DNA from: Candidatus Bathyarchaeota archaeon
GTDB taxonomy: Archaea; Thermoproteota; Bathyarchaeia; Bathyarchaeales; Bathycorpusculaceae
Reading direction: 5' to 3'
Length of the DNA: 64,000 nucleotides
Assembly (NCBI GenBank): GCA_963702095.1
Contig: OY969706.1
Location: 2,240,001 to 2,304,000 of the forward strand
The translations under genes were made by a program, and so were the position numbers. Below the pieces are notes generated by a model. That model saw nothing but the letters and a program-made list of their open reading frames with translations. It searched no databases and was not told the DNA's origin. Shown here one piece after another: positions 768-61,582 of this stretch; positions within the stretch are counted from its first letter, which is position 1, and every line of letters begins with the position of its first letter.

Positions 768-875
768 TGGTTTGCTGGGGCTCTGGAACCCGTCTAAGGA
801 GAAAAGAATGGAAAATGCAACTAAACCATTCTCAACCGCAACTGCATTAACTATATCCAGAGCCCACTCAGCCCA
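768..875 (-). ncRNA. BHB-closed structured RNA element, copy 1
   Basis: Minus strand reads UGG-GCUG-AGU-GGGCUCUGGA...UCCAGAGCCC-CAGC-AAA-CCA; about 60 nt after the propeller stop codon. Confidence 0.75.
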
Positions 876-935
876 CATTTTTACTTTCAATTTATCCCAA
901 AAAAGGGAAAGGGGAGATTGATTCGTGTTTGTGTT

Positions 936-3591
936 TTATGCTCGTTTCCTGAGTATGAGTAGTCCAACGACTGCTATTGCAATGATTATAGCGATTGTTG
1001 CACCGACTATGTACATCATGAGGTCTGAAGTTGTTGCATAGTTTACTGCGTTGACGGTTGGTGTGGGTGTTGAGGCTGATTCGTCGACTGCGAAGCTTGT
1101 TTCTGCTGATGATGGCCAGTAGCCGTTGGTTCCAGCGAATGATGCGTAGAGGAGGTATTGGCCTGAAATGTCTGGGACCCATCGGTAGCTGTATGTGCCG
1201 GTTAAGTCAGTTTGTGTTTCGCCGATTTGTCGGTAGTTGCCGTTAGCATCCACCACTGATAGAGTCACAGTGACACCGCTAGCATTTGCGGGTATGGGTT
1301 TCTGCTGGTAGACGTATCCCATCCAGTCTTTCATGCTGCTATCAGAAACGCATGCGACGCCGTCGGGGAATCTTACTGCTTGCTCATCTTGTGTTGTGCC
1401 GCTAGATAAGTCAGTGACTGCGCCTCTGATGACGATGCTTTGTCCTGGTGCTGCTCCCAGATCAGGTGCAGTTACTGTGGTTTTGCTTGCTCCTCTGCCA
1501 ACAACGTAGACTGAGCTGTCATAACTGTTGAACCATGTAGAGAAACCGTCTGCAATTGCGTAGCTTGTGCTGCCGAATTCCATTGTAGCAGAAGAGATTG
1601 TCCAGATTTCTTTGCCGTCAGTTGCGTTAACTGCACGTGCTAAGCCGCCCTTGTAGATGGGAGACGTCCATGTATGTTCACTCGTAACCAAGTAGACTAC
1701 ATCATTGCCGATTGCGTTGACGAATGTTGGTATGTTGCCGTATGGCCAGTTGAAGCCGCTGTTGGTACTGTTACCTTCGCCGCCGTTACCATAAGTCCAG
1801 AGTAGATCGCCTGTTTTCATGTCGTAGCAGTAGAGTATGCCCGCCATTGCCATGCTGTAGAGTTTGCCGTAAGCAATTTGGCCTGATAATACGCCTGCAC
1901 TGGGGCTGCCGTAGTAGTCGAAGGCTGCTTGAGGCTCAGATTGCCAGATTTTTTCACCTGAATCTAAGCTGTAAGCTACCCACATGACGCCTTCTTTTAG
2001 CGATTGTAGGAATACACGGCTATCCCAGTCCACTCCGGCTTGGATGACAGTGTAGTTGTTTGCTGGAGGGTCTAATGTCTTCCACCATGATACTGAGCCG
2101 ATTGTGCCTTTAGTTGAGTCGAGGTTGACAAAGAAGTACGTGTAGGGAGTGCTGCTTGGTGTTGGGAATAAGTTGTTTTCGCCGTTTGAAGGGAATGTAC
2201 CGTTGTAGCATAAGATACCGTCTCCGTATTTGGACATAATTATATTTGTCGGGTTAGTTCCCGCTGTTTTTGTCGGCATTGTGTTTAGCCATGGTACAGA
2301 TATGTTCCAGTCATAGCACCAAGATGCCCCGCCGTCCAAATTCCCGAATTTAGGTGCTGCAGCAGTAATTCCCTCGCCATATATGAAAACTTTAGTTAAG
2401 TTCCACTGACATAAACACCAATCAGGGTTTTCAGCAGTGCCTGCATTAGCCAAGACATATTGTAAGTATTCGCCGTCTGAACCCATAGCCTTTGCACCTG
2501 ACGGAACATTGGTTATGTTAACTACGGCTTTGTCCTGTGTCCGCATCGTAGCCAAGCCAAGTAGTGCCGCTCTTAGCATATAGAATCGGTTGGCAAACGC
2601 CGTGTTCATTTTGTGTTTGTACATCCATGATATAGCCGAAAGACAACGCTGGTATGTCTTTTTCCCAAAGTACTTCGCCTGTACGTAAATCGACGCACGC
2701 TAGTGGCCCTTGACCGCCGTTGTTGCTAAATCCAAAGTTTACGGGTTCTTTGTAGTAGATTTTGCCATTCAATATTATGGGGTTGTCGTATCTGATGATG
2801 TAAGCTGAGCCGTCAAAGTATGTGTTGCCTTGAATTTCATAGTTGTCTCCGCCGACTACACCACCGGCTTGCAGAGCTTTAGTCCACATAACGTGGCCAG
2901 TCTGAGAACCGATAGCATCGCCTGGGAACATTGCCTCGCCGCCCATGAAGCCCATCTGGGCTGAACCAGAAGAGGCGTAGCCACCATAGTTGGGTGCGCC
3001 AGTGCCTAGCCAGTTCGATGAGATGCTCCACCAATCGGTGTTCTCACCATAAATTGGGCGAGTCCAGTATTCAGAAGGCAAAGGATAGCTTGTGATGGCT
3101 GCGGGTATAGGGTCTTCTTGTACGGTTAGAGTAGTGGATGCACTGCTTGGCAAGTAAGTGTCATTTACGTAGGCATTGCCTGCGTCTGAAGCGTATGTTT
3201 CTCCGGGGTAGGTGAAAGTTAAATTATAGGTACCGACTTGGTCTGGAGTGAAAGTGGCAAGCTGAGCAGCGGTTGTGTCTCTGATGGTATCAAAAGTCTG
3301 CGTTGAAACCTCACCGTTAGGCGCAGTAATAGTAAGCTTATAGTTATGGAACCTGAGATTGTCTGTTCCGTACTGTGATCCGAAATAGTAGTTAGTGAGC
3401 ATCAAAAAGACATTCGCTTGTTGCCCAACACCGACTGGGTTAGGCGCAACGGAAATCAATGCATATGTTGGCCACTCGGTTGGAGGATCGTGTGCTAAAG
3501 CTGTTGGCAATAACGTTGCAACTGTTCCAATAGATATGGTTAGGATCATAGCGATTGCGATAGCGATTATTTTCGTTTTAGATAGTTTCAA
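936..3591 (-). CDS. Secreted membrane-anchored PQQ-like beta-propeller surface protein (paralog 1), apparent frameshift near 2530
   Basis: Signal peptide, APNPVGVGQ Ig-like N-terminus, YWTRP motif, WD/PQQ-like repeats, C-terminal TM helix plus RKRA; two overlapping ORFs join on comparison with paralogs. Confidence 0.85.
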
Positions 3592-3760
3592 GTTTTTTAT
3601 TCTCCTTAATAGTTGTGGCTCGTTATTTCTTTGCCACTAGTATTTAATAATTTCTATAAAAAGCCAATTTACAGTAAATAATAAATACTTAAAGCACTTT
3701 TCGGTTTAAAAAATACAACAAAAAAAGCTAGCTACAAACCCACCCATAAAGATATTAGGA

Positions 3761-21851: not shown

Positions 21852-21950
21852 GGGTATATTGAGGCCTTGGAATAATTAAAGTAAGAAAGATGGAAATGCA
21901 AACCCTATTCCACCGCGAATAGTTAATTCTTCCAAAGCCCTTTCAACCCC
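21852..21950 (-). ncRNA. BHB-closed structured RNA element, diverged orphan copy 8
   Basis: Minus strand reads GGG-GUUG-AAA-GGGCUUUGGAA...UUCCAAGGCCU-CAAU-AUA-CCC; inner UUGCAUUUCCAU retained. Confidence 0.7.
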
Positions 21951-23465: not shown

Positions 23466-23554
23466 CCATGCACAGGCAGAGCATATCTGAAACGCCTAAC
23501 TTTTTCGAAACATGTGTGTCTCATCTAAATATCGCTCAGACACTACATTGACTC
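23466..23554 (-). other. 3' strand of pre-23S processing stem with BHB motif
   Basis: GUCUG-AGCG-AUA-UUUAG pairs with CUAAA-CGCC-AAA-CAGAC at 26586-26602; 23466-23486 is complementary to 26647-26667. Confidence 0.85.
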
Positions 23555-23555
23555 G

Positions 23556-26568
<3,013 letters not shown>

Positions 26569-26571
26569 TAC

Positions 26572-39303: not shown

Positions 39304-39414
39304 GGTTTGCTGGGGCTCTGGAACCCGAACTAAAGGAGAAAAGAATGGAAAATGCAACTAAACCATTCTCAACTACCCATGACCGATTAATGTTATCCAG
39401 AGCCCACTCAGCCC
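39304..39414 (-). ncRNA. BHB-closed RNA element, copy 2
   Basis: GG-GCUG-AGU-GGGCUCUGGA...UCCAGAGCCC-CAGC-AAA-CC. Confidence 0.75.
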
Positions 39415-39477: not shown

Positions 39478-42147
39478 TTAAGGTCGTTTTTTGACTGACA
39501 TCAAGATAACTGCGCCGACGATGGAAATTGCTATAATTACGGCAACAGCAGAACCCAATATAGTCATAGTATTGTCGACCGCTTGTAACGGTTGTGTCGT
39601 TGGCGCTGGTGTCGCTGCTTCGCTAGCATGGAAATATGTCACGGCTGAAGATGGGTAATACGAGTTTGAACCACCAAAGGTAGCAATTATAGTGTAGTCT
39701 CCAGCTATATCGGGGGTCCATGTGAAGCCGTATGAGCCATAGGAGTTCGAAGTTGTTGTGCCAATCTCTCGGTAATTGTTGTTGGAGTCGACGACAGATA
39801 ATGTTACGGTTACACCTGTGGCGTCAGATGGTCGTGGTTGATCTTGGTAGGCGTATTCCATCCATTTGCTCTGGCTTTCTTCAGAAACACATGCTAGACC
39901 ATTTGGGAATTTCTTTGCAACCTCAGACTGTGTTGTACCCGCTGATATGTCTGTTACAGTGCCAGTGATAGTAATTGGTGTAGCAGTAGTCACTCCAACG
40001 TCTGGAACATCTACAGTCAATTTGCTGGGTCCCTTGGCAAAGGCATAAATCTGGTTGTCATAGCAGTTCAACGAGATCAAAGTGTTGTAAGCAATTGCAG
40101 TAGCGACAACATATGTTCCTAACTCTTTCCAGATTAGTGTACCATCTGTTAGGTTAATAGCTAACATCTGTGCACCATGGAACAGCGGTGGGTTGTATTC
40201 ATGTCCTATTGGAAGATATGCAACGTCATTGGTATAAGCTTGGCAACGGAATGTCCACAGTGGCCACATGCCATAGGGGCTTTCGATGCCTGGATCGCCG
40301 ATGAGTGTTGTTGTGTTGGTGTACCATAGTTGTTTGCCAGTCTTTGTTTCAATAGCCCATATGTCGCCGCCTAAACCGGCGATGATAATTTTGCCGTTAG
40401 CTCCAGAGTAGCCAGCTGTTCCACCTAACATTGAATAGGTGCTTGGTTCGCCATTACCGTAGGGGGTTTTAAGTGCTGTTTCCCATGCTTTGGCACCAGT
40501 TCGGCAGTCAATGCCTGTGCTTATCCAGTTTACGTGGTTAGTTATGGATACGATTCCGTCATCAACTATTATTGATGCTCTAGTGAATGGCAGTAGTGAT
40601 TTGCAGTCTGGGTAAGTCAAGTTTTTGGACCACAATGTAGTACCATCAGCGGCATCCATGGAAGCCATTACTAGGTAACCAGTTGATTGGTCGGAAGCGT
40701 GAATTAATCCCGAAGTTAGAATAACAGTGTTGCTGCATAACCGCGATACTGAAAGTGTTGGGGTAATGGTTACGTCATTGACTGTTAAAGGAATTGGTTT
40801 AGCCCACATTAATCCGTAGCCCGCATCAATAGCGTTGTTTGTGGTTGGATACCATAGCCAATCATTGACTAAAGCCTTTGAAAGGTTAAAGCAGCATAAG
40901 GCAGGTGTGGTAATGTTTATCACTTCTTTGACCTGTGGGATTTGGAAACCGACCATCGGTATCATTGGTGTTTGTTGATAGGTTCTGACTTGACCAATAG
41001 TGCGATTGATATAGTATCCGATTAAGTTACCAGTTGCATCGGTTGTTAAAGTCATTGAACTAGCATTGCATATGCTGCATACGTATTTTCCACTTAACGC
41101 AGAGTATAGGTTATATTGGGTTCCAAAGTTTTTGTAAACGATTCCTCCAGTTTCAGCTGCGGGAAGAGCACCAGTAGTTATAACGTACGGACCGACGACA
41201 CCATATGCGTTGACTGTTTTCCATTCGTTAGCCATGCCTGTGGCTAAAATTGAAGTCGTGTTGATAGTGTACAGCGTTTCACCTGTAGCAAGATCGGTGC
41301 AAATGATACCAGATGGGCAACCGTAGCTTTCAGGGTACCAGGTGGAGTACATTTTGTCAGCAATTATAACTGGCGCAAACTGTGGGGTATATTGTCTTGT
41401 TGACCAGTAATGTCCTGATTCTTCGTCGCCACCAGCTTCACCGCCGACTACACCGCCAGTACACCAGACTTTAGTCCAAATGACGTGACCAGAAAGTACT
41501 GAAGCAGTGTAGGGGTTGCATAAGCTTGTTGCATTGTAGTATCCCACTGATCCCCCGAGACCCCATGGACCCATGTACTTGTACCATTCCTGAACGTTCT
41601 GTGCTGAGACGGGTGCTTCCCAATATTCTGTTGGAAGTGGCGTTATTGGATATGCAGTTTGTGTGATGGGCTCTTCTTGTACAGTTAATGTAACGACTTC
41701 GCTTTGGCTTGGCATTTCTTTGAGACCTACAAATCCGTCACCGAGAAGCGCATTTCTAAGTGTGGTTTGTCCACCGTAGAAGAATTGAAAAGTCCAATTG
41801 CCTACTTGGTCAGGTACAAAGTTGAAGTATGATCCACCAGTTGTGTCGCCTGTTATTGGACCTCTTGTTTCTACATTACCGTCTGGGTCAGTGATTTTAA
41901 CTGTCATGTTTGTTACTGCTTCGCCGGATTGTATTGAAGTTGCTAGAAAGAAGTTGACGTTGACTGTTTGACCTACCCCAATTGGGTTAGGAGCTACGCT
42001 GATAAAAGCATACGTCGGAATTTCTGTTCCAGGAGCAAATGTTGTATCAGCTAATGCCGAAGACAGCAATGTTGAGCCAGCAATCAGAAGAATAAGCAGC
42101 GTTGCGATTGCACTTTTTATATTTCTTGCATCAATTTTAAATTTCAT
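39478..42147 (-). CDS. PQQ-like beta-propeller surface protein (paralog 2)
   Basis: Intact 889 aa; signal peptide, HEYNPPLFHG and C-terminal TM helix plus KKRP. Confidence 0.88.
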   Translation of the reverse strand: MKFKIDARNIKSAIATLLILLIAGSTLLSSALADTTFAPGTEIPTYAFISVAPNPIGVGQTVNVNFFLATSIQSGEAVTNMTVKITDPDGNVETRGPITGDTTGGSYFNFVPDQVGNWTFQFFYGGQTTLRNALLGDGFVGLKEMPSQSEVVTLTVQEEPITQTAYPITPLPTEYWEAPVSAQNVQEWYKYMGPWGLGGSVGYYNATSLCNPYTASVLSGHVIWTKVWCTGGVVGGEAGGDEESGHYWSTRQYTPQFAPVIIADKMYSTWYPESYGCPSGIICTDLATGETLYTINTTSILATGMANEWKTVNAYGVVGPYVITTGALPAAETGGIVYKNFGTQYNLYSALSGKYVCSICNASSMTLTTDATGNLIGYYINRTIGQVRTYQQTPMIPMVGFQIPQVKEVINITTPALCCFNLSKALVNDWLWYPTTNNAIDAGYGLMWAKPIPLTVNDVTITPTLSVSRLCSNTVILTSGLIHASDQSTGYLVMASMDAADGTTLWSKNLTYPDCKSLLPFTRASIIVDDGIVSITNHVNWISTGIDCRTGAKAWETALKTPYGNGEPSTYSMLGGTAGYSGANGKIIIAGLGGDIWAIETKTGKQLWYTNTTTLIGDPGIESPYGMWPLWTFRCQAYTNDVAYLPIGHEYNPPLFHGAQMLAINLTDGTLIWKELGTYVVATAIAYNTLISLNCYDNQIYAFAKGPSKLTVDVPDVGVTTATPITITGTVTDISAGTTQSEVAKKFPNGLACVSEESQSKWMEYAYQDQPRPSDATGVTVTLSVVDSNNNYREIGTTTSNSYGSYGFTWTPDIAGDYTIIATFGGSNSYYPSSAVTYFHASEAATPAPTTQPLQAVDNTMTILGSAVAVIIAISIVGAVILMSVKKRP

Positions 42148-43085: not shown

Positions 43086-43111
43086 TCTTAAGCGCTCTTA
43101 TTAGATTAGAG

Positions 43112-43216
43112 GTTTGCTGGGGCTCTGGAACCCGATTAAGGAAGAGAAGAATGGAAAATGCAAATAACCATTCTCAACTACCCGCGATTATTAGATTTTC
43201 CAGAGCCCGCTCAGCC
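43112..43216 (-). ncRNA. BHB-closed RNA element, copy 3
   Basis: G-GCUG-AGC-GGGCUCUGGAA...UUCCAGAGCCC-CAGC-AAA-C; bulge variant AGC, weak outer helix. Confidence 0.7.
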
Positions 43217-43276
43217 ACTACTTAGCTGTTCTAATCCCAAAAAAAGGGAAAGGGAAATTATTTCAATCAATTGTTT

Positions 43277-46033: not shown

Positions 46034-46711
46034 ATGTTCGATATCGAGCGAATAGTAATAGAGATGGTTTCAGCAATAGCCTGCTTCATCCTCGTAAAAT
46101 TCATGATAAAACCGTTTCAACTGACAGGAGAAACTAGACATCTTTTTTTAGCTCTCGGATTTGGTTTACTTGGCGCATCCTACGCGTTTTCAGCCATATC
46201 GTTCGCGCTTGAAGCACTCCAAACGTGGTCACCTGTTTTCATTAGCTGGTTCTGGGTGGAGCTTCTGGTGAGAGCATTCGCCTTCCTATTTCTCGCAATT
46301 ACATATTACTTTTCAAGATTGGAGAAAAAAACTAAGCCATTATGGAATACAACCCTTGTTATTTTAGTGGCTCTTTTGGCAGTTTTAATCCTATCGGCGA
46401 TTATTTTTCCACAGTTGCCTTGGTCAAGTTATATAACCATCAATATTTATGTGCGGTTTTTTTCTTTGATATGCCTTCTTTACATTTCGATTCAATCTTT
46501 GAGAAGCCATATTGAGCAGGCAGAGCCAAAAACACTTATGGTTCCATTAGGGTACATTCTACTTGGAATAGGAACCTATTCATCGTTGATCGGTGCCGTT
46601 GACTTAACGCTTTTTCCGCTTTTTGGAGCGTTAGTGCTACGCCTAGCTGGTCTCGCGGTCTTGCTTTTCGTTTGCTATAAAACATTCTATAGTAAAGACA
46701 AGAGGGTATAA
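46034..46711 (+). CDS. Multi-TM membrane protein (putative sensor)
   Basis: About seven TM helices; paralog of 50398-51072; directly precedes a wHTH gene. Confidence 0.75.
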   Translation: MFDIERIVIEMVSAIACFILVKFMIKPFQLTGETRHLFLALGFGLLGASYAFSAISFALEALQTWSPVFISWFWVELLVRAFAFLFLAITYYFSRLEKKTKPLWNTTLVILVALLAVLILSAIIFPQLPWSSYITINIYVRFFSLICLLYISIQSLRSHIEQAEPKTLMVPLGYILLGIGTYSSLIGAVDLTLFPLFGALVLRLAGLAVLLFVCYKTFYSKDKRV

Positions 46712-47073: not shown

Positions 47074-47180
47074 GGTTTGCTGGGGCTCTGGAACCCGAAC
47101 TAAAGGAGAAAAGAACGGAAAATGCAACTAAACCATTCTCAACCGCGACTACGTTAATTTTATCTAGAGCTTCTCAGCCA
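47074..47180 (-). ncRNA. BHB-type RNA element, copy 4 (degenerate 5' arm)
   Basis: 5' arm GCUG-AG-AAGCUCUAGA has mismatches and a 1-nt deletion; core and 3' arm conserved. Confidence 0.6.
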
Positions 47181-47244: not shown

Positions 47245-49860
47245 TTATGGCCGTTTTCTAATCAAGAGTACGCCGACTATCGCTATCGAGATGATTATGG
47301 CGATTACACCGATTGCTAAGTACGTTAGAATTTCACTAGTTGTTGCTAAGTCTGTTTGAACCTGCTGTGTAGGTGCTGGTGTGGCTGCTTCACTTGCATA
47401 GAATGCTGTTTGCGCTGACGCTGGATAGTACGAGTTGGAGCCGGCAAAGCTTGCGATTATCTGGTAGTTGCCTGAAATGTCGGGTGTCCATGTAAAGCCG
47501 AAGGTGCCGCTCGCAGTACTCGTTGTTTGTCCAATTTCGCGGTAGTTGCCGTTTGAGTCGATAACACTAATCGTAATGGGCACACCAGTGATGTTGTAAG
47601 GCATATCTTGCTGCTGGTAGACTGCTTCCATGAAAGCGCTTTGGCTTTCGTCAGAGACACAGGGCAATCCGTAGGGGTATTTGGATGATACTAGAGTTGA
47701 TTCTGTGCCTGGCGAGAAGTCCAAGATTGAGCCTGAGATGGTAATCGGTGTAGAGGTAGTTACTCCGACTGCTGGGGCCTCAACTGTGATACCGCTTGCA
47801 CCTTTGCCGAAGCAGTAAAGCATGTTGTCGTAGGCATTTAGGGATACAAGTTTGCTGTATGCGATGGCTGTGGAGGTGACGCTTGTGTCCAATGTGCGCC
47901 AGATGAGCGAGCCGTCCGTTAAGTTGAGTGCATAGAGTTGGCATCCGTGGAATAGCGGTGGGTTGTATTCATGACCGCCTGTGATGTATGCAACATTATT
48001 GGATTCACAACCGCTTGCAAAACTCCAAAGTGGCCAGATGTTGTAGGGTGTCTCAATTCCAGATGGACCTTGGAGTTTTGTTGTGTTGGAGTACCAGTTT
48101 ATCTCGCCAGTTTTACTATTAACGCTCCAGATGTCTCCGCCTAAACTGTTGACTATGAACGCGTTGTTTGCCTGATACAATTTCATACCAAAGACGTCGT
48201 ATATGTTTGGTTCTGCGCCGTTATCGCCTGTCAGCTGTACTTCCCATGCTTTACTGCAATCCTTTGTGTTTATACCAACGAAATAGCCGTTGACGTTGTT
48301 GCAGATACCGTAGATGCCGTCGCCTGCTACGGTTCCAGTTCTACTCCAAGGCAGCATTGCATTTATCGTCGGATATGTCAAGTTTGCAGAGCCAACTACG
48401 GCACCGGTGTCTTGATTCATTGTTACAATGCAAGTGTAGCCTTTTTGTCCCGTGCTCGGGTTTCCTGCGGTCAAAACCAATTCATTGCCAGTTATTGCAC
48501 TCAATCCAAGGGCGGGGTCAATGGAGACACCGCTGATATTGTTTGGCACTGGCACATCCCACATATAACCTGAGCTAAAGGCGCGGACAGTATTTTTAGA
48601 TACGCTAAACTGACCCGCTGTAAATCCTGCAGCCATGGTCAGGTTAACGCAGGTTAAGTGTGGACCAGTGTTTGTTACAATAGCGTCTGTTGATTGTGTC
48701 GGATGTACGATTTGTGTACCTGCTGTGTTGTTGATAAAGTAGCCGATCAAGTTACCGTTTTCGTCGTTCCGGATTTTTAAATCAGAACCGTTTACTATGC
48801 TGAGAACGTAACTTCCTGTGACAGCGTCGAAGAGGTTCCATTGTGTTCCTGTATTGCGAGGGATGGAACCGCCAGTTTCGCCTGCAGCACAAGTGCCTGT
48901 GGTCCATAGGAATGGTCCGAGAACACCGTACTCGTTCAGGTTTTGATGGAAAGTAACCATGCCGCACCGCAATGTACTCGTAGTGTTGAGCAGCCAAAGA
49001 GTCTCACCAGTATACACGTCGATGGCTATGATGCCTTGTTTACCGGCAGTGCCTGTAGTTGAAGTAAACCATGTGGAGTATAGTATGCCGTTGATGATGA
49101 CAGGAGCGTATCTGGGCTGATACTGGAATGTTGACCAGTAGTGAGACGTAACTTCGTTTCCGCCAAGTTCTCCGCCTGCTACACCGCCGCCGCACCAAGC
49201 TTTCTTCCACAGAACGTGGCCGGATAATACGTCTTCGGTGTATGGATTGTAGTTGCTAGTACTGTTGTATGCGCCTGTGATAGTGAAGGAACTAGCGCCG
49301 GCATATCCATACCAAGCGCCAGTAATCGAGTACCAGTTTTGCGAGTTTTGCGCGGATACCGGTGTTTCCCAATAAGTAGCTGGGAGTGGTGTGAAGGGGT
49401 ATGAGCGTCCAATGTTAGGTTCCTCTTGGACAATAAGCGTTGTTGGTTTACTTGTACTAGCATCAGCGATCATTCCGTTTGTCAATGTTTGTCCTTTGAA
49501 GTAGAATTGTATTGTGTAGTTGCCGACCTTGTCTGGGGCAAAGTACGCACAGGTGCCTTCAGTCGTGTCGGATGTATATGGTCCTAAGGTGGTATTAGTT
49601 CCATCGGGTTTAACTATGTCTACGTAGAAGGGTGTCGCTACTTCACCAGTTGGATATGGAGTTGCAAGGAATATGTTGAGGGTGACTTGTTGACCGACTC
49701 CAGCAGGGTTAGGAAAGACGTTAAGGTAAGCAAAGGTTGGCATGTGGGTCCCTGTGGGGAAAGTGCTATCTCCGTAGGCTGGATGCACTGCGATAACCAT
49801 TGAAAGCAACATTATTATAGCGAGAAAAGCAATCGTAATTTCTTTTTTACGTATTTTCAT
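47245..49860 (-). CDS. PQQ-like beta-propeller surface protein (paralog 4)
   Basis: Intact 871 aa; HEYNPPLFHG and C-terminal TM helix plus RKRP. Confidence 0.88.
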   Translation of the reverse strand: MKIRKKEITIAFLAIIMLLSMVIAVHPAYGDSTFPTGTHMPTFAYLNVFPNPAGVGQQVTLNIFLATPYPTGEVATPFYVDIVKPDGTNTTLGPYTSDTTEGTCAYFAPDKVGNYTIQFYFKGQTLTNGMIADASTSKPTTLIVQEEPNIGRSYPFTPLPATYWETPVSAQNSQNWYSITGAWYGYAGASSFTITGAYNSTSNYNPYTEDVLSGHVLWKKAWCGGGVAGGELGGNEVTSHYWSTFQYQPRYAPVIINGILYSTWFTSTTGTAGKQGIIAIDVYTGETLWLLNTTSTLRCGMVTFHQNLNEYGVLGPFLWTTGTCAAGETGGSIPRNTGTQWNLFDAVTGSYVLSIVNGSDLKIRNDENGNLIGYFINNTAGTQIVHPTQSTDAIVTNTGPHLTCVNLTMAAGFTAGQFSVSKNTVRAFSSGYMWDVPVPNNISGVSIDPALGLSAITGNELVLTAGNPSTGQKGYTCIVTMNQDTGAVVGSANLTYPTINAMLPWSRTGTVAGDGIYGICNNVNGYFVGINTKDCSKAWEVQLTGDNGAEPNIYDVFGMKLYQANNAFIVNSLGGDIWSVNSKTGEINWYSNTTKLQGPSGIETPYNIWPLWSFASGCESNNVAYITGGHEYNPPLFHGCQLYALNLTDGSLIWRTLDTSVTSTAIAYSKLVSLNAYDNMLYCFGKGASGITVEAPAVGVTTSTPITISGSILDFSPGTESTLVSSKYPYGLPCVSDESQSAFMEAVYQQQDMPYNITGVPITISVIDSNGNYREIGQTTSTASGTFGFTWTPDISGNYQIIASFAGSNSYYPASAQTAFYASEAATPAPTQQVQTDLATTSEILTYLAIGVIAIIISIAIVGVLLIRKRP

Positions 49861-50397: not shown

Positions 50398-51072
50398 ATG
50401 TACCCTGACAACAATTATGCTACTTACCGGATGATAGCGGAGTTTGCAGCAGCGATTATCTGCATTGTTCTCGTATGGTTCATGTCAAAACCATACAAGT
50501 TGACTAGGAAGGGAAGTTATCTGGGTTTACCACTTGGATTTGGGTTTCTAGGGTTATCATTTCTTCTAGGAGGCATCTCTATTTCAAAAATATTGCCTTC
50601 TAATGCTAATGATATATTTTGGTTACCATGTTTAACTAAAACATTCGCATTCATTTTCATCGCGGCAACATATTTTTTTGCAACCAGAAATTCAGAACTA
50701 AACCGCAAAGTCGGAGACATTACTATTGGGGTCTTAATAGCAGCTCTCGTTGCTTCAATCCTACTTGCATTTGCCGCTCCACAACTTGCTTTAGACTACA
50801 CAGCGGCGAATCAGTACCTAAGAATCTTTAACGTATTTTGTTTAATCTACGTAGTTGTCTTCACACTTCAGAGGCATATTAAGAATCTTGATCCGACAAC
50901 CATTTGGATTCCTTTGGGTTTTATTTTTCTTGCCGTAAGTCAGTATTCACTACTCTTTTGGTATATTGATTATAGTTTTTCTGCATTCGTAGGAGCTCTT
51001 ATCTTGCGGTTTATTGGTTTAGGGATCTTTCTTTTCGTTGCTTATCACAGCTTCTACAAAGAGGCCGGATAA
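50398..51072 (+). CDS. Multi-TM membrane protein (putative sensor)
   Basis: Paralog of 46034-46711 (FM.KP..LT, LGFG.LG, AF.F.A.TYFF, PLG). Confidence 0.75.
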   Translation: MYPDNNYATYRMIAEFAAAIICIVLVWFMSKPYKLTRKGSYLGLPLGFGFLGLSFLLGGISISKILPSNANDIFWLPCLTKTFAFIFIAATYFFATRNSELNRKVGDITIGVLIAALVASILLAFAAPQLALDYTAANQYLRIFNVFCLIYVVVFTLQRHIKNLDPTTIWIPLGFIFLAVSQYSLLFWYIDYSFSAFVGALILRFIGLGIFLFVAYHSFYKEAG

Positions 51073-51377: not shown

Positions 51378-51498
51378 AAATGGTTTGCTGGGGCTCTGGA
51401 ACCCGTTTAAGGAAGAAAAGAATGGAAAATGCAACTAAACCATCCTTCAACTACCCTACTACTAGGTTAACTTGATCCAGAGCCCACTCAGCCCATTT
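51378..51498 (-). ncRNA. BHB-closed RNA element, copy 5 (full hBHBh' geometry)
   Basis: AAAUGG-GCUG-AGU-GGGCUCUGGA...UCCAGAGCCC-CAGC-AAA-CCAUUU; 6-bp outer helix. Confidence 0.8.
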
Positions 51499-51561: not shown

Positions 51562-54343
51562 TTATGGTCGTTTTCTAAGCAGAAGCAGTGTGGCTATTGC
51601 AATTGCAATTATGATAGCGACAGCAGTAACTGCCATGTACATCAATAGGTCACTGGTTGTAGCTAAGCCAGTTTGAGGCGGCTGTGTTGGCGCTGCTGTT
51701 GCTGCTTCACTTGCATAGAGTGCTGTTGAAGCCGAAGCTGGATAATACGAGTTGGAGCCTGAGAAGCTTGCGTAGATTTTATAGTTTCCAATAATGTCTG
51801 GTGTCCATGTATAGCTGAAAGTACCGTCAGCATCGCTTGTAGTTGTGCCAATCTCGCGGTAGTTGCCATTAGAGTCAACAACAGCTAACGTGATTGGAAC
51901 TCCAATAGTATTCGATGGTAACGGTTGTTGCTGGTAGACATACTCCATCCATTTGCTTTGGCTTTCATCTGAAACACATGGCACGCCATTGGGGAATCTT
52001 AATGCGACTTCGTTTTGCTTTGTCATTGTAATGTCAGGTGAAGTAATTGCTCTTGTGCCAGGCGAAATATCCATTATTGTACCTCTTATAGTCAACGGTG
52101 TTGCAGTTGTTAAGCCGACATCAGGGGCTGTAACGGTCATAGTGCATGGACCCTTGCCCCAAGCGTATATCTGGTTGTCATAAGCGTTCATTGACAGCAC
52201 AATGTTGTAAGCGACTGCGGTAGACCTAATGTACATGCCTAATTCGCTCCAAACTAACGAGCCATCAGTCATGTTGAGTGCTATCATCTGTGAGCCATGG
52301 AATAGCGGTGGGTTATACTCGTGACCAACGGTGAGGTACGCCACATTAGTCGTGTAGCCAGGTGAGCTGAAAACCCACAGTGGCCAAACGTCATAGGGCG
52401 TTTCAATGCCTGGGTCACCGATCAGTGTAGTTGTGTTCGTGTACCAGAGTTCAGCGCCTGTATGAGAGTCAAAGCACCATACATCTCCTCCTAAGCCGTA
52501 CCAGAGTAATTTACCGTTTACGAATTGGTTGCTGATTCCAAAGTTGTCGTAGACGTTTGGTGTTCCGTCTCCGTAAGGTGTCTCAAGTGTTGTGGTCCAT
52601 AGTTTATCTCCGGTTCTTGTACTGTATGCTGCCATTTCCCAATTAACTAGGTTGACAGTTACGAATTGTCCATCTCCGAATGCGCGGCTTGTTCTGGTGA
52701 AGGGCAGAAGTTCTGTTGATCCGCCTGCATATGTATAGTTCTTGCACCATAACTCGGCGCCAGTGTTCAAGTCCATTGCACAGTAAATTAGCCAGCCAGG
52801 TACTTCGTCACCGCCTCCTTGCATGTGGATGAATCCAGCGCTAAGCACCAATTCGTTGCCAGTTATCGAACTCAGCGAGAGAGAGAGCCTTGGAGTAGTT
52901 GGAGATGTAGATATCGGTGTGCCATCATCAGTTGTAGTTGGTACGTCTACGGTCCACATGACTCCGTCTTGCCAGTTGTATGCTCTGTTTAGGGTTGGTC
53001 CCCATCCAAAGGCTGCGGCGCATGCCAAGAGCCATGGTTAGGTTAACGCATGTTAAGTGCGGTCCAGTGGTGTTCACAAGGACTTGTTGAATTCCTGTGC
53101 CGCCGCCTGAACCTGCAGCTGCGGATGTTCCTGGATAAGGATAGGTAGGTTCGTTTATGCCTGCGGTATTGTTAATGTAGTAGCCCATCAAGTTTCCGTT
53201 GTCGTCTTCTCTGAGCGTCACTGAGGAACCGTTGACGATGCTGCATATGTATTTTCCATCCCAGCCTGAATAGAGGTTCCACTGCGTTCCACGGTTATTG
53301 TATACTACTCCGCCTGTGTCTGCTGCGGGAAGCGTTCCAGTCGTCCAAATATAGGGACCAACAGCACCGTACTGATTAGCCATGTGGAATTTAGTGACCA
53401 TTCCGCATTTCAAGGCGTTTGTTGTGTTTATTGTCCAAAGTGTTGCGCCAGTGTATAAGTCTGAGCATATGATACCGTGAGCTAAGTTTGTGGCTTCTGG
53501 GTATGATGTTGAGTACATTCTGCCGTTTATTATGACTGGTGCATACTGAGGCTGGTACTGCCTAGTTGACCAGTAGCTGCCTGAGTCTTCTGATCCGCCG
53601 CTTGTTCCAACGCTTTCACCGCCAGCTACACCACCTGAAAGCCACTCTTTTGTCCAAAGAACGTGACCTGAATAGACAGAATCAGTGTAGGGGTTGTATC
53701 GTGTGGTAGCATTGTATGCGCCAGTTTGTGCGAAAGTGATTGAGCCAAGGCGAAGCCAGTCTCCTGTAACCTTAGACCATTCCTGCACGTTCTCTGCGCT
53801 GACGGGGGTTTGCCACCAATCAGTTGGAAGTGGAGTAATCGGATAGGCAGTGCGCTCTAGCGGTTCCTGTTGAACGGTCAGAACGTAAGGTTTGCTTACG
53901 CTAGGCATTTCATAGAGACTACCATAGCCTCCCTCTGTAATGTTGCGTCCAGTTAATTGTTGTCCGCCATAGTAGAATGTGAATGTGTAGTTGCCGACTT
54001 TATCTGGGACAAAGTTGAAGAATGTTCCGCCTGTGGTGTCTCCAGTGTAGGGTCCGAAGGTTTTTGGGGTGCCATCTGGGTCGACCATTTTAACGGTCAT
54101 GTTAGTTGGGCGTTCACTGGTTTCTAGCGCTGATGATACGAAGAAGTTGACGTTGACTGTTTGTCCGACACCCACTGGGTTTGGAGCTACGTTGATGAAA
54201 GCATATGTTGGGACTTGATAGTTTTCGGGGAATAAGACTTGTGCGAATGTGCTTGAGGTTAATGCCATAGAAATTGTCAAAGAAGCTATTAGAAATGTTG
54301 CTAGCAATGTAATTATTTTATTTTTATTGAATTTTGTTTGCAT
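51562..54343 (-). CDS. PQQ-like beta-propeller surface protein (paralog 5), apparent frameshift near 53025
   Basis: Two overlapping ORFs join collinearly with paralogs 2 and 4. Confidence 0.85.
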
Positions 54344-55040: not shown

Positions 55041-55265
55041 TATCGAATAGCCATAAACAGGCAATCACAGGTAGCTTAGCACTTATTCGAATTATTGGGT
55101 ACACCATACTCCAAGTTTCTTAATTTAAATCTTGTTGAAAGTGCAACTTACAACGGTTGAAAGGTTGAAGAAGACCAATCGCAAATAGATCCCTGAAGCG
55201 TTTGATAATCCGTCACATAAGGCAATGACAAAACTTAAAAATAATGAAAAACAAAAAGCTTGCAC

Positions 55266-56066
55266 ATGTTCCAACATGAAGAAGCCCTCCAAATACTTGT
55301 TGACTTCGGACTTACCCCTCTGCAATCAAAAATTTACATTTGCCTTATTACAGGCGGTTCAAATGGAATCGGAGTAAGAAATATTTCCGATATTTCGAGC
55401 GTGTCCCGAGAAGACGTTTACAGAGTTTTGGCAACACTCGAAAAAAAAGGTCTAGTTGAAAAGATAATTGCACATCCAACCAAATATAAACCGCTTCCAT
55501 TTGAAGACGGCGTTTACTTGCTTATTAAAAAAGAATCAGAGAAACTCCATGTGAAAGAAAAGAAGGCTAAATTGGTTCTTCAAAACATATCAATTCCAGA
55601 TGCCGACCCGATTGAAGAAGAATCGGCTTTCATAGTTGGGTCTGAATTGTCCTTATTACTAAAAAGGCTAAAAGATAAAATCGCCAATACCGAGAGAACA
55701 ATAGACATTATCTATTACAAGCCATTAAAAGTTATCTTATTTCATACGATTGATGAACTCCTCCAAGCATTAGAAAAAGGCGTAAAAATTCGAGTAATAG
55801 GCAGAGAAAACATCAATGAACCATTAAACGAAAACCTAAAGAAATTGAAGAAAAAAAACTCTTTTGAACTAAAAATAATAAACCAAGAAATCCCTGTCGG
55901 TCTATCTATTTTTGATGACAAAGAAGTAATACTTCGTACCGGCAAGAGTATCGTTCCAGTATTGTGGACAAATAACGAAAATATTGTGAAACTAACTTCA
56001 ATCTATTACGATAGTATGTGGAGTAACGGTGAAAAGCAAGAGATAATACTAGGGGATCAAGCATAA
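55266..56066 (+). CDS. TrmB-family transcriptional regulator
   Basis: FGLT.LQSKIY, REDVYRVL..LEKKGLVE and GVKIRVI. Confidence 0.88.
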   Translation: MFQHEEALQILVDFGLTPLQSKIYICLITGGSNGIGVRNISDISSVSREDVYRVLATLEKKGLVEKIIAHPTKYKPLPFEDGVYLLIKKESEKLHVKEKKAKLVLQNISIPDADPIEEESAFIVGSELSLLLKRLKDKIANTERTIDIIYYKPLKVILFHTIDELLQALEKGVKIRVIGRENINEPLNENLKKLKKKNSFELKIINQEIPVGLSIFDDKEVILRTGKSIVPVLWTNNENIVKLTSIYYDSMWSNGEKQEIILGDQA

Positions 56067-56223: not shown

Positions 56224-56336
56224 GGTTTGCTGGGGCTCTGGAACCCGAACTAAAGGAGAAAGAATGGAAAATGCAACTAAACCATTCTTCAACTACCCTA
56301 CTACTAGGTTAACTTTATCCAGAGCCCACTCAGCCC
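56224..56336 (-). ncRNA. BHB-closed RNA element, copy 6
   Basis: Same stems and bulges AGU/AAA. Confidence 0.75.
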
Positions 56337-56411: not shown

Positions 56412-59145
56412 TTAGCGTTTTCGTAGCATCAGCACAACGAGGATTGCGCCGACTAGGAAGACTGCGACGAGGATTGCTGCGACTGCTGGCAGGAAGTATG
56501 AGTCGATGCTTGATGAGTTGTTTGATGTTGGTGGAGGTGTTGTTGCTTGTTGTGCTACTGCGAAGCTGCTTTCTGCGTATGAGGATGCATAGCCGTTTGT
56601 GCCTGCGAAGGATGCGATGACTGTGTAGTCGCCTGCGATGTCGGGAGTCCATGTTAAGCTGTATGCGCCTGATGCGTCAGTGGTTGCTGTGCCTATGGAT
56701 CTGTAGTTGCCGTTAGAGTCAAGCACGTTGACATCGACTGTGACACCGGTAAAGTTCATTGGCGCTGGTTGTTGTTGATAGACATAGCCCATCCAGTCTT
56801 TCATGGATGCATCAGATGACACTGGAACACCGTTGGGGAATTTGGCTTTGGCTGCTGTTTGCTGTGTGCCTGCTGCAACGTCTGTGACTGTTCCACGGAT
56901 AACTATTGGTTGACCGTAACTTGCTGCTAGGTTTGGTGCTGAAATGGTGGTTGCGCTTGGTCCGCGGCCGACGCTGTAGATTTGGTTGTCGTAGCCGTTG
57001 AGGAATACTGAGTAGCCGTCTGCGATTGCATAGCTTTGAGCGGTGAATTCGCCTGTGTAATCTGAGAGCGTCCAGATTTCTTCGCCGGTGGTTGCGTTGA
57101 TTGCGCGTGCTAGGGCGCCTTTGTAGATTGGTGTGCGTATGGTGTGTTCACTGCTGACCAGGTAAACGACATCGTTGCCTACGGCGTTGATAAAGGTCGG
57201 GTAGTCACCGTAGGGTGTGTTGAGGCCTGCATATGTGCTGTTGCCTGCGCCGCCGTTGCCGTAAGTCCAAAGTACGTCGCCGCTGGCGAGGTCATAGCAG
57301 TAGACGATGCCGCCGTAGGAGCTGCTGTAGAGTTTGCCGTTAGCTACTTGTCCGTATGGTTGTGCTGGTGCTGGTTGACCGTAGTAGTCCCAGTCAGTCT
57401 GAGACTCGGTTGGACCCCACATTTTCTCGCCAGTCAGTAGGCTGTAACCGACGAAGTTTGTAGTTTCTTTGTATGTTTCAACAAATACGTTTGAAACTGG
57501 GTCAGCGCCTGCGTAATAGACAGTTAAGTTACCTGCTGGTGGATCGACAGTCGTAGACCACATCTGAGTACCAAAGTGAGCGTCAGAGACGTTGATGTTT
57601 AAGCCGTAGTAGTTGTAGGGTGTCCAGCTTGGAGTAGTGAAGCTTGAGGGAGCAGCTGGGTAAGAGCCGTTCTCGAGCAATAGCATGTTATTGTAGAATG
57701 CTGCTAAAACGGTTGGTGCGGTGGGTGCATTGTAATCTGCTAATGAGATGTTCCAGTCGTAACTGTATGTTGGGCTTGCGGGGTTAACGTCGTTTCCGTT
57801 GACGATGAAGTTGCCATTTGTGGTTGAACCGATCATGGACCAGGTTGCGCCGTTGGTGGCATTGTGGAGTGCTGGTGTGTAGCCACTGTAATCCCATAGT
57901 TTTGAGGAGTTCCATTCAGCAAGGTACCAGTTTGGATTGGTTGCGTTGCCATAGTTGGTTACTACGTAGCGTAAGTGTTCACCGTTTGGTCCCATAGCTT
58001 CAGTGCCTGCAGGAACGCCAGTGACATTGAACAATGCTGTGCCTGTTAATGCGTCGAATGCACGTGCAAAGTTGGAGGTGAACAGAATAGGTTGCATAAC
58101 ACCGTGTTGGTTGGGGTCTTCAAGGTCATAAACGTAGCCAAATGATAGTGCTGGAACATCATTGCGTGACCAGAGAACTTGGCCTGTGCGTAGGTCAACT
58201 GCATCGGTTGGACCTGAATTGGTGCCTGAGAAGCCGACAGGTTCAGTGTAGTACAGAATACCATCGATTACGATTGGGTTAGTGAATCTTTGCAGATATG
58301 CTGAGCCTTCAAAGTAGGTGTTGCCTTGGATTGCAACTGAGTCACCGCCTGTGATACCGCCCATTTGCAATGGCTTAGTCCACATAATGTGGCTTGTCAT
58401 TGGACCAACTGCATCACCTGGATAGCGTTGCATCACTGACCCAAAAGCATAGATTGGGGGGCCAGTGGTGAAGCTGGTGATGTCGCCGGAGCCAGTTGCA
58501 GATAAGACGGGTGCACCTGTGCCGAGCCAGTTAGAAGAGACTGTCCACCAGTCACTGTTAGAACCATAGATTGGTCTTGTCCAGTAATCGGTTGGCAAGG
58601 GGTTGCTTCCGATGGCTGCAGGGATTTGTTCTTCTTGTACGGTGAGGGTTGTTGAGGTATTGCTTGGCAGATAGGTATCATTGACTAGTACTGAGGTGGG
58701 GTTGTAGCCGCCTTCGTATTGTGCGTATGCCTGTCCTGGGAATGAGAAGTACAATTTGTAGACGCCGACTTGGTCAGGGGTGAATTGCATGTATTGGTTA
58801 GAAGTTGAGTCATGGACTATGTCGAAGATTTTTGTGGTAACGTTACCGTCTGGCGCAACGATTGTTAGGTTGTAGTTGTGGAAGCGGTAATTGTTTGCTA
58901 GAGCAGCAACAGCGTTAGATTCGAAGCCTGCGCCGAATACTTGGTCAACCCACGTGAAGATGATCATGGATTCGGCCGACGCCAACGGGGTCAGGTGTTG
59001 CTTCGATGTAGGCGTGGGTTGGGATTTCCCATGATGGAGTGTGTGCTGAGACGTTTGGTATGGCTGCGACAGCGATTGAAGTCGTTAGTAGTACAGTGAG
59101 GATGATAGCGATTAGAGCTTGTTTTGATTTTGCGAAGTTATTCAT
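56412..59145 (-). CDS. PQQ-like beta-propeller surface protein (paralog 6), apparent frameshift near 58975
   Basis: Signal-peptide ORF 58945-59145 joins the 857-aa ORF on removal of one base after PVGVG. Confidence 0.85.
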
Positions 59146-59380: not shown

Positions 59381-60385
59381 GTGGTTAAAATAGAGCAATT
59401 CAGCGAAGTCCAAGCGAAAATTCTTAAACAGCTACTAGTTGACGGACGCAAAAGCGAGAAAGAAATTGCAGCAGCCACAGGGGTCTCAGAGCAAATTGTC
59501 AAAAAGAATTACCAAGAAATGGAAAAAAAAGGCGTAATCACAGGAGCAACCACACACATAAATTACAAACTGTTTGGCTACCAAGCAGTTAGTTACATCT
59601 CAATTAATGTACACTCCCAGCAAGCAGACAACCTCATCAAATACTTACGAGGGATGCCAGATGTCTACGCTGTTTATTCCACAGGGATAGGTGGAAGTGT
59701 TGATTGTCTGTTGATTCTAAGAACCTTCGAGCAATTAAACGAAGTCAAAGACTGCATTAAAAGAAATTTTTCCGTGCTTGAGATGAAGACTTCTATGTGG
59801 ACTGGAGTAAGAGAGATGAATTATAACATAGCAATCACTGAGGGAAATCGAAAAAATAATGGGTTAATCCACAGTGAGAAAACTAGTAGAGTAACCGCAA
59901 ATTTGATGCAGAAAACAGGTATAACCCTAGATGAGATCGACTTGAAAATGGCTGATCTTCTAACAGAGAACGGGCGGATACCTATCGAAGCCTTGGGTGA
60001 AAAATTAGGGCTTCCAACTTCAACTGCTAAAAGAAAGTTTGAAAGACTAAAAAACAATGGAGCTCTAAAAGTCACCATCCAGATTAGCCCATATAAAATC
60101 GGGTACCGTGCTCTTGGAATTTTTTTTGTAGTCACCTCAGACGAAGAATCCAGTCTCATTATCGACCAACTAAGCGAGATACCCGATATCATAAGCATAA
60201 TGAAAACAAGCGGAGATTATGATCTGCAGATATACGCGATGCTGCAGGACTTGGATCAGTTGCTTAACATTCAGGAAAGTATGGGTAAAATTCCGGGAAT
60301 AATAAAATTAGACACAGAACTATACAGATTTAGCGAAAAATGGATAAAATGGCCTACGCCAAGACAATATATGTCAACGCTATAG
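59381..60385 (+). CDS. Tandem (double) Lrp/AsnC regulator
   Basis: Two HTH-RAM units and GDYDL. Confidence 0.9.
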   Translation: MVKIEQFSEVQAKILKQLLVDGRKSEKEIAAATGVSEQIVKKNYQEMEKKGVITGATTHINYKLFGYQAVSYISINVHSQQADNLIKYLRGMPDVYAVYSTGIGGSVDCLLILRTFEQLNEVKDCIKRNFSVLEMKTSMWTGVREMNYNIAITEGNRKNNGLIHSEKTSRVTANLMQKTGITLDEIDLKMADLLTENGRIPIEALGEKLGLPTSTAKRKFERLKNNGALKVTIQISPYKIGYRALGIFFVVTSDEESSLIIDQLSEIPDIISIMKTSGDYDLQIYAMLQDLDQLLNIQESMGKIPGIIKLDTELYRFSEKWIKWPTPRQYMSTL

Positions 60386-60450
60386 AAAAAGGGCGTAAAC
60401 GGCATAAAAAAGCCAAGAATTAAATAATCAGAGTTTAATCTGTAGACCCT

Positions 60451-61455
60451 ATGTCCAACAGGAGACCAGCGACTGCCAAACTCAATGACTTAGACGCAAA
60501 GATTCTAAGAATTCTGCTAAACGACGGTCGAACAGGCTTCGATGAATTGGCGAAAGCAGGTAAAGTCACCAAGAACGTCGCATGGAAACGTTTTAGGGTA
60601 ATGGAGAAAAAGGGCATTATTAAAGGGGCAACTGTTCAAATCAATTATGGCCATTTTGGGTTTGCTGTAAATGCAACGCTGCTAATCAGTGTTAATGCTG
60701 AACATGTTGAACATGTTATGGAGCTTATTCCGAAGATAATTGAGGTGCAAGCCAACCGGCAGTATAATTGTGTCTACAATGTCAGAGCAGTTGCTTGTTT
60801 GAGGGACCTAAATGAACTGGACACAATAAAACAGACAATAAAACAAAAGATACCCACGATTGGGCTGAAGACGTACATTTGGACGGGTGTTAGAAACATA
60901 CCTGAAAACCTGAACCTTAGAGGTAACTCAAAATATCCAGATGAGAACGTCGGACAAGAAAAAGCTAAAAGGGCAAGCAGCCCTAAGCCCGAAAATCCAA
61001 TTGATGATCTTGACAAACAAATCACTGAAAAGCTTACGTTGGATGGACGAGCCTCGTTTACTCAAATTGCAAAACAAATTGGAGTATCCACGGAAACCGT
61101 CATAAACAGGTACAGTAAACTCAGGGAAAAGGGTTCCTTGAAGGCATCAATTCAAATTGACCCCAAAAAAATAGGTTACTACTCTCTGGTAGATTTCAAC
61201 ATAGCCTTTGCAGTGCCCGGCAGCATGTCAAATGTAATTGTTGATTCACTTACAAAAATACCTGACATAGTAAATGTAACCAAAGTAAGCGGCGACTACG
61301 ACCTCCAAGGAACCGCAATGGTTAGAGACATATCTGAATCCTTTGCTATTCAAGACCAAATTGCCAGAATCAACGGCATAACAAAAGTTGAAGTTAGTGC
61401 AAGAAAAATTCCCGACACTTGGCCGGCGCCACATCAACACATCTCAACTTTCTGA
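60451..61455 (+). CDS. Tandem (double) Lrp/AsnC regulator
   Basis: Two HTH-RAM units; paralog of the preceding gene. Confidence 0.9.
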   Translation: MSNRRPATAKLNDLDAKILRILLNDGRTGFDELAKAGKVTKNVAWKRFRVMEKKGIIKGATVQINYGHFGFAVNATLLISVNAEHVEHVMELIPKIIEVQANRQYNCVYNVRAVACLRDLNELDTIKQTIKQKIPTIGLKTYIWTGVRNIPENLNLRGNSKYPDENVGQEKAKRASSPKPENPIDDLDKQITEKLTLDGRASFTQIAKQIGVSTETVINRYSKLREKGSLKASIQIDPKKIGYYSLVDFNIAFAVPGSMSNVIVDSLTKIPDIVNVTKVSGDYDLQGTAMVRDISESFAIQDQIARINGITKVEVSARKIPDTWPAPHQHISTF

Positions 61456-61480
61456 ATTTCCTGAAACTCTTGTCTTTTAG

Positions 61481-61582
61481 GGTTTGCTGGGGCTCTGGGA
61501 CAATTAAGGAGAAAAGAATGGAAAATGCACTAACCATTCCGGACCGAAACCGCGTAATTTAAATCCAGAGCCCATTCAGCCC
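61481..61582 (-). ncRNA. BHB-closed RNA element, copy 7
   Basis: GG-GCUG-AAU-GGGCUCUGG...CCAGAGCCC-CAGC-AAA-CC; bulge variant AAU. Confidence 0.72.

Follow-up and report, generated by a model that had tools for sequence, protein, structure and literature searches.

The window analysed here is a stretch of 64,000 nucleotides from a Candidatus Bathyarchaeota archaeon of the Bathycorpusculaceae (assembly GCA_963702095.1, contig OY969706.1, forward-strand positions 2,240,001 to 2,304,000); coordinates below refer to the window unless they are marked as genome positions. It holds seven genes for beta-propeller surface proteins, all on the minus strand, and behind the stop codon of each of them lies one copy of a conserved element that is the subject of this report. 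A typical host gene (39478..42147, minus strand) encodes a signal peptide, a PQQ-like beta-propeller, an immunoglobulin (Ig)-like/filamin-like domain and a C-terminal transmembrane helix ending in KKRP. The others are located at 936-3591, 43277-45889, 47245-49860, 51562-54343, 56412-58985 and 61634-62029 plus 62146-63999. Three of the seven (936-3591, 51562-54343 and 61634-63999) are split into two open reading frames (ORFs) that overlap or lie about 116 nt apart, and these may be frameshifts, pseudogenes or assembly errors. From the stop codon of the anchor ORF, i.e. the one that ends in the membrane helix, to the element the gaps for copies 1 to 7 amount to 60, 62, 59, 63, 66, 74 and 50 nt.

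On the gene strand the element is laid out as an outer helix, a 4-bp central helix (GCUG/CAGC), two A-rich bulges of 3 nt, each situated 3' of the central helix, and an inner helix. This is the bulge-helix-bulge (BHB) arrangement cut by the archaeal tRNA-splicing endonuclease EndA. In copy 1 (769..874) the 5' side comprises the outer GG (874-873), the central GCUG (872-869), the 5' bulge AGU (868-866) and the inner helix from 865 onwards, while the 3' side comprises the second strand of the inner helix (787-778), CAGC (777-774), the AAA bulge (773-771) and the outer CC (770-769). Cleavage after the second bulge nucleotide, a rule taken from established knowledge and from the intron boundaries given by ARAGORN, is predicted to excise an RNA of 95 nt (866->772) from this copy. 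The same rule predicts 100 nt (39406->39307) for copy 2 (39304..39414), 96 nt (43209->43114) for copy 3 (43111..43217; 5' bulge AGC), 102 nt (51486->51385) for copy 5 (51382..51494), 102 nt (56328->56227) for copy 6 (56224..56336; 3' anchor placed by hand) and 91 nt (61574->61484) for copy 7 (61481..61582; 5' bulge AAU). Copy 4 (47074..47180), for which 96 nt are predicted, combines a degenerate 5' half (GGCUGAG-AAGCUCUAG) with an intact 3' half.

When the seven copies are aligned, the 3' half (UUGCAUUUUCCAUUCUU...CCAGAGCCCCAGCAAACC) is almost invariant and the 5' interior variable. The 3' 18-mer CCAGAGCCCCAGCAAACC occurs seven times in the window (0.00 expected from 100 shuffles) and the 5' half-pattern six times (0.01 expected from shuffles), copy 4 being the miss. 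Minimum free energy (MFE) folding of six of the seven copies yields the 4-bp helix together with a 5' bulge of 3 nt and an inner helix of 9-10 bp, with z-scores from -1.75 to -4.26, the best of which belongs to copy 5; the fold of copy 4 lacks the BHB layout (z +0.46). An earlier note on this DNA had placed the seven copies on the minus strand, had called copy 4 degenerate and had proposed excised pieces at 772-866 and 51385-51486. The motif counts, the missed half-pattern together with the positive fold score, and the boundaries recovered from the predicted cut sites agree with it on each of these points. Its list was right as far as it went; it overlooked an eighth copy, and the family turns out to be genome-wide. 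Copy 8 (21853..21949, minus strand) is divergent and stands alone, about 130 nt upstream of the gene for a glycogen-debranching enzyme (19625-21724, minus strand) and not behind a propeller gene. It reads GGG-GUUG-AAA-GGGCUUUGG...CCAAGGCCU-CAAU-AUA-CCC, so that compensatory changes preserve the 3-4-3 geometry of bulge, helix and bulge, and its predicted excised RNA (21941->21856) measures 86 nt. The word TTATAAAT is found some 30 nt upstream of this copy.

Genuine EndA substrates of the same genome allow a direct comparison. The intron of its tRNA-Met gene is framed by CUGGG-CUCA-UA|A-CAGC.. and ..GCUG-UGAG-AU|A-CCCAG, giving the order h-H-B-h' on the 5' strand and h'-H'-B-h on the 3' strand, which is identical to the order of parts in the element. 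The flanks of the 16S rRNA form a 9-bp outer stem, a CUCC/GGAG central helix, bulges AAA and CAA and an 11-bp inner stem. Polarity and cut sites of the element agree with both the tRNA-Met intron and the 16S processing stem, and the opposite strand presents the parts in reversed order, so that the plus strand has the wrong bulge polarity, as had been proposed earlier. The genome also encodes the enzymes: two EndA paralogs (PF01974, two matches over the cut-off) and one RtcB (PF01139). One EndA paralog has the S. tokodaii and A. pernix enzymes as best solved relatives and the other the enzyme of M. jannaschii, and the first paralog is nearest to crenarchaeal catalytic subunits. The nearest relatives of its EndA overall, with 78-95% identity, nearly all carry the label Candidatus Bathyarchaeota or Bathyarchaeia, and some Ca. 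Bathycorpusculum. According to extracts of a published report, every archaeal genome of that study encoded EndA and RtcB, and Bathyarchaeia have circular rRNA transcripts (PMC12918454). The 23S rRNA gene, which lies within the window (23549-26575, minus strand), stands alone at a distance of about 215 kb from the 16S gene (genome 2048161-2049650), and scanning up to 220 nt from the 23S ends revealed no convincing canonical BHB.

The family extends well beyond the window. A hidden Markov model built from the seven copies (nhmmer) gave 31 matches in the 2.94-Mb single-contig genome, and a covariance model gave 29. Model R1, a covariance model built on 24 full-length copies, matched 29 of the 36 genomes that represent other species of the genus, as well as both genomes of g16, a genus in a different family of this order, and had no match in the 22 other genomes of the order that were searched. 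Model R2 added the home-family genera g23, g26, g27 and g28 and a third g16 genome; with this model, matches occur in 13 of the 151 genomes of the class, and of the two matches outside the two families one is on a contig of 1405 bp and one is marginal. Matching genomes mostly hold several copies, with a maximum of 29. A comparison with known RNA families, suggested in the earlier note, identified none at the elements: the gathering-score scan of the window against Rfam 15 returned only the 23S rRNA and two tRNAs, and an E-value scan of four relatives' loci returned a single chance-level match away from the element. Full-text searches of a literature collection that excludes subscription journals turned up no published description of such a family. 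A strict genome-wide scan for BHB motifs proved too noisy as a discovery tool and was dropped; its approximately 920 matches are near the chance level estimated by hand, and it recovered 10 of the 31 elements and one of the eight intron-bearing tRNAs.

Structural counts for the relatives rest on 102 aligned copies drawn from more than 300 model R1 matches. In these the central GCUG/CAGC helix is 99% paired, the 5' bulge has 3 nt in 100 copies and the 3' bulge in all 102; the corresponding figures for copies of this genome are 22 and 24 of 24. Overall, 91.5% of the helix cells are paired, against 23-54% when partners are slid. Both partners have changed in 90 cells, whereas shuffles give 28.1 +/- 5.0 and none of 500 attains 90; these alignments were fitted to the covariance model. 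The inner helix spans 9-12 bp, and compensatory changes occur in all ten of its inner pairs. When one best copy is taken from each of 29 relatives, GCUG/CAGC is invariant, seven of ten inner pairs have changed on both sides and 95% of the cells pair, against 24-53% with the partner slid. RNAalifold predicted the same central and inner helices from an independent MAFFT alignment of 58 copies. In genus g16 the outer helix extends to 8 bp (GAAAUGGG/CCCAUUUC) with compensatory variants, its six extra outer pairs being 88% paired (46-63% when slid), and MFE folds give outer stems of 12-15 bp with z-scores of -4.75 and -4.79. Non-Watson-Crick cells in the helices of the home genus comprise 26 G.U and 7 A.C, which favours an RNA read from the gene strand. 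Conservation and compensatory change in two families support the canonical hBHBh' form with the right polarity that had been proposed from the window, the outer helix being short in the home genus, and the 3-4-3 geometry is kept among the homologs.

A few variants of the element deserve mention. Tandem pairs spaced by 15-40 nt occur in relatives (L120:451-675, G168:C15:7267-7538, G089:C8:5025-5284, G187:C37:12604-12866 and G193:C1:4349-4631), and in the first of these the second copy is preceded by the word CCTTTAAAAATT, which resembles the tRNA promoters of the genome studied here. At genome positions 1213090, 2175481 and 2187409 a sub-family shares just the 3' end (..CAGCAGUUCCAGAGCCCCAGCAAACC) and has a different, G/U-rich interior; no obvious 5' BHB partner was seen at these three sites. 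At genome position 390934 (plus strand) a fragment similar to the 3' half of the element (UUUUCUCCUC..AGCCCCAGCAA), unreported by nhmmer, is followed by unrelated sequence.

Linkage to one type of gene is a further, though not absolute, feature. In this genome, 19 of the 31 copies reside 50-100 nt behind an ORF ending in a hydrophobic helix and RKRP-like residues. Among the relatives' copies, 79 of 102 follow an anchor gene with gaps of 38-98 nt (53 of 71 in the home genus, with a 54th recognized by eye, and 26 of 31 in g16). Stand-alone copies account for roughly a fifth to a third. The host genes make up one paralogous family in both families of Bathyarchaeia. PQQ_2 beta-propeller matches were obtained for seven of eight ORFs in the window, seven of eight elsewhere in the genome and both of two in g16, mostly in proteins that also carry an Ig-like domain; among three proteins examined for their anchor, none matched an NCBIfam C-terminal sorting signal. 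The claim that the element follows every beta-propeller gene is true in the window, whereas genome-wide some paralogs are without it or have a decayed copy. Relative to the closest relative, coding sequences are 66-71% identical and the element 84-90%, which places the element under tighter constraint than the gene. Among the 25 best alignments to this relative, 19 stop at the 3' edge of the element, which sets AAACC as the limit of the conserved unit, and none of the alignments over the present locus extends past that edge. One element-less paralog is identical up to the T-run and unrelated beyond it. The element is a real and conserved family of BHB-bounded RNA modules that is linked to a family of surface-protein genes. 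As a separate observation, ARAGORN reported a tRNA with a four-letter anticodon (ttcg) at genome 1235811-1235888 (minus strand), just downstream of an element-less anchor gene of the propeller type.

Between stop codon and element, an A-rich spacer, a C-rich stretch with T-run and a conserved purine-rich leader follow each other with nearly fixed spacing. Upstream of copy 1, this region (875..935, minus strand; the anchor ORF stop is at 936) consists of an A-rich part, the C-rich/T-run sequence TTTCCCTTTTTT and an A/T-rich leader of about 25 nt, and the same layout precedes most copies. TATA-like words are present upstream of the element, and their distance does not decide whether it has a start site of its own. 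Pairing between leader and interior tract was considered and dropped, cognate combinations being no better than others (-10.96 versus -10.97 kcal/mol, n=69; -10.55 versus -10.51, n=30).

Inside the element, home genus and g16 follow a common plan consisting of the inner helix, a 5' linker, a small hairpin and a pyrimidine tract that is predicted to be unpaired. In the home genus the tract reads UUCUUUUCUCCU(U/A)A; in g16 it reads UUUUUUCACCUUCAA, also given as UUUUUUCACCUUC. Its reverse complement consists of GGAG or GGUG, an A-rich spacer and AUG and looks like a typical translation-initiation region. Outside the elements, 42 near-matches to the 14-mer of the tract complement were found, 22 of which are followed by at least 12 open codons, a count in which gene calls were not compared. 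The 3' end of the 16S rRNA is GAUCACCUCCU, followed by AAGU, and 16S end and flanking sequence taken together have CUCCUAA in common with the tract of the home genus and UCACCU with that of g16. C/D box RNAs are defined by RUGAUGA and CUGA, H/ACA RNAs by an ACA box with a pseudouridylation pocket. Visual inspection of the alignments detected neither, just CUGA in the part belonging to the 5' exon and a variable GUGAUAG word; neither ARAGORN nor Rfam reported a tRNA at the elements, in agreement with what had been concluded from the window by eye.

What process could have shaped such an element? We consider it reasonably probable that it is a substrate of EndA and RtcB from which small circular RNAs arise. 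A module of approximately 105-115 nt would then be inherited together with the 3' flank of a paralogous family of secreted, membrane-anchored PQQ-propeller/Ig-like proteins. Transcripts that pass the T-run, or that start just upstream of the element, would fold into the BHB, EndA would cut after the second nucleotide of each bulge, and ligation by RtcB would produce a circle of about 86-102 nt for the copies in the window and would seal the flank into a hairpin with a loop of 7 nt. Sequence patterns for the predicted circle junction and the joined flanks had no match in metagenome contigs, an outcome that is uninformative for this question. The circle is expected to be a rod that exposes the invariant loop (CAGCAA+N) at one end and contains the interior hairpin and the predicted single-stranded pyrimidine tract. 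The most likely role would be post-transcriptional control of the gene family, either via the tract or via maturation and stabilisation of the mRNA 3' end. A more far-reaching version, which we regard as doubtful, would have the propeller genes co-produce rings of about 100 nt through EndA and RtcB whose tract copies the anti-Shine-Dalgarno sequence, so that they could serve as stable decoy or antisense for ribosome-binding sites and couple transcription of surface-protein genes to translational control; in this version the module might even take the maturation route of pre-16S rRNA and be cut at the BHB, circularised and re-opened.

Several observations weigh against excision and circularisation. 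In 86 of the 102 copies a T-run of at least five is found no more than 60 nt upstream and may terminate transcripts ahead of the element, and interior U-runs (two U6 in g16) could stop archaeal RNA polymerase inside it. The g16 outer stem begins about 13 nt after the T-run, which implies that transcripts able to form the stem either pass the T-run or have their start inside it or immediately behind it. In the home genus the outer helix is limited to 2-3 G-C pairs, and its extension is 48% paired against 35-47% when slid; this would make the element a relaxed substrate there, of a type that two-subunit EndA enzymes are reported to accept. The strand test is weak when all 102 copies are counted (54 G.U versus 43 A.C), and the copies are mutually non-independent. 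EndA recognises shape rather than sequence, and the near-invariance of GCUG/CAGC, of the AAA bulge and of GG/CC therefore points to a further constraint, which suggests for example selection on the two 7-nt loops that splicing would create. Finally, several close paralogs of the host genes lack the element and one has a decayed copy, and co-duplication with the gene alone can explain the linkage.

Among other explanations, a structure acting in cis within the 3' flank of the propeller mRNAs comes to mind, be it a stabiliser, a second terminator or a protein platform, that is never excised and whose BHB shape is a by-product of a bulged stem made for another factor. The fixed position behind one gene family in two families of archaea would suit it, as would the near-invariance of central helix, bulges and outer G-C pairs beyond the known needs of EndA and the fact that T-run and conserved leader belong to the conserved unit. 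On the other hand, the exact 3-4-3 geometry with EndA polarity in 100 of 102 copies, the addition of a long outer helix resembling a processing stem in g16, and the retention of the fold in stand-alone copies such as 21853-21949, along with the conservation of interior motifs, speak against it, and we judge it possible, if rather unlikely. Alternatively, the element could be a selfish or neutral repeat similar to a BHB intron that arrived once in the 3' flank of an ancestral propeller gene, spread solely by duplication and gene conversion of the propeller family, is perhaps spliced and has no function of its own. It is true that all tested host genes are paralogs, that copies decay or vanish without obvious effect on the gene, that relatives have tandem pairs and that, for two copies separated by 2.3 kb (genome 2723786 and 2726081), near-identity is confined to the stretch running from some 4 nt ahead of GGGCUGAG to AAACC, with differing flanks. 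Against this, the element is more conserved between species (up to 90%) than the adjacent coding sequence (66-71%), maintains its helices by compensatory changes and keeps the interior pyrimidine tract in both families. Nor were intron-less hairpin alleles recovered from 301 genomes of the order, in which 36 near-matches compare with about 16 in a reversed control and none of six that were inspected lies behind a propeller gene; a search of this genome for permuted or processed copies yielded nothing meaningful. We regard a selfish origin as unlikely.

Two further alternatives concern the DNA itself and the opposite strand. A DNA-level element, i.e. a miniature inverted-repeat transposable element, a recombination site or an operator pair, might mimic the RNA motif by imperfect inverted repeats. 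Inverted repeats recognised by a single protein should likewise covary between their two arms, the G.U versus A.C comparison is weak overall, and in copies of this genome the leader contains a palindromic ATGCAT-like word and the interior a similar one. However, orientation and distance relative to the gene do not vary, the 3-nt offsets lie on opposite arms with fixed polarity, and the excess of G.U in the home genus favours a gene-strand RNA. The earlier note had named a transposon end as an alternative, and no transposon hallmark emerged: inspection revealed no target-site duplications, the flanks are unrelated in the home genus and inverted rather than direct in g16, and no link to a transposase or integrase was seen, though neighbouring genes were not systematically searched. 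We rate a DNA element as very unlikely. The same low probability is assigned to a small protein encoded on the opposite strand, with the conserved interior motif as its ribosome-binding site and start. The complement of the tract does read GGAG/GGUG, A-rich spacer and AUG, and in g16 seven of 31 copies give 17-residue ORFs starting with MKK. This candidate was rejected, since a suitably spaced ATG is missing from 30 of 102 copies, ORF lengths vary from 1 to 75 residues and the indels are not in threes.

If the element is indeed processed by EndA and RtcB, it would join a short list of substrates. According to extracts of one report, BHB substrates comprise tRNA introns, rRNA processing stems, the intron in cbf5 mRNA and an intron in the 5' untranslated region (UTR) of HVO_1309 (PMC7714728). 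The latter, 46 nt in length and found in Haloferax volcanii, is cut by EndA in vitro and has been found as a circle (Schwarz et al., 2020, PMC7714728). The introns of cbf5 in Crenarchaeota and of HVO_1309 share with the element the BHB in the transcript of a protein gene, and they use the tRNA-splicing machinery. As described in these extracts, they are single-copy and located in the coding region or the 5' UTR, whereas the element is present in 5-30 copies per genome behind stop codon and T-run; it measures about 100 nt, has a conserved interior, is tied to one gene family and is known here from its sequence. The processing stems of 16S and 23S rRNA, as far as the excerpted texts describe them, resemble it in polarity, in a long outer stem, in the 4-bp helix and in the pair of A-rich 3-nt bulges, and pre-rRNA is converted by EndA and RtcB into a circle, which is likewise the product expected here (PMC7714728, PMC12918454). 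The g16 copies look like miniature rRNA processing stems; unlike those stems, the element encloses approximately 100 nt of non-rRNA sequence, and its outer stem in the home genus has 2-3 bp. Extracts of a third source state that canonical tRNA introns are circular after excision, that the tRNA-Trp intron carries a C/D box RNA and that circular omega-RNAs exist without a BHB (PMC12558985). The element shares the hBHBh' layout and cut positions with the tRNA-Met intron of this genome, and in both cases the excised piece may be functional, while the flanks of the element are not tRNA. The permuted or circular SRP RNA of Thermoproteus and permuted tRNA genes illustrate that functional non-coding RNAs can be made by BHB excision and circularisation. 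There, known RNAs have rearranged genes; here, no known RNA family is involved. Bacterial REP/BIME and Correia/CREE sequences are likewise multi-copy, stem-forming repeats of gene 3' flanks that are possibly processed by host RNases, and they are scattered behind unrelated genes and have a link to a transposase or RAYT. In contrast, the element accompanies a single gene family, keeps the same distance and orientation to it and contains an archaeal splice motif.

The propeller genes of the window are interleaved with genes for regulators, namely two TrmB-like proteins (42285-43085, minus strand, and 55260-56066, plus strand) and two tandem double-domain Lrp/AsnC proteins (59381-60385 and 60451-61455, both plus strand). 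Copy 3 of the element is situated 27 nt upstream of the start of the first TrmB-family gene. Also interspersed are genes for small membrane proteins, two paralogs of about 225 amino acids (46034-46711 and 50398-51072, both plus strand), one with a weak MASE3-like match.

The known substrates of EndA and RtcB are tRNA, rRNA and two isolated mRNAs. If our reading is correct, a multi-copy BHB family would represent a new class of substrate for these enzymes and a natural source of small circular RNAs in an abundant group of uncultivated archaea. With dozens of loci per genome, the family provides exact predicted coordinates for cuts and junctions, and it may point to a link between the expression of cell-surface genes and control at the RNA level.

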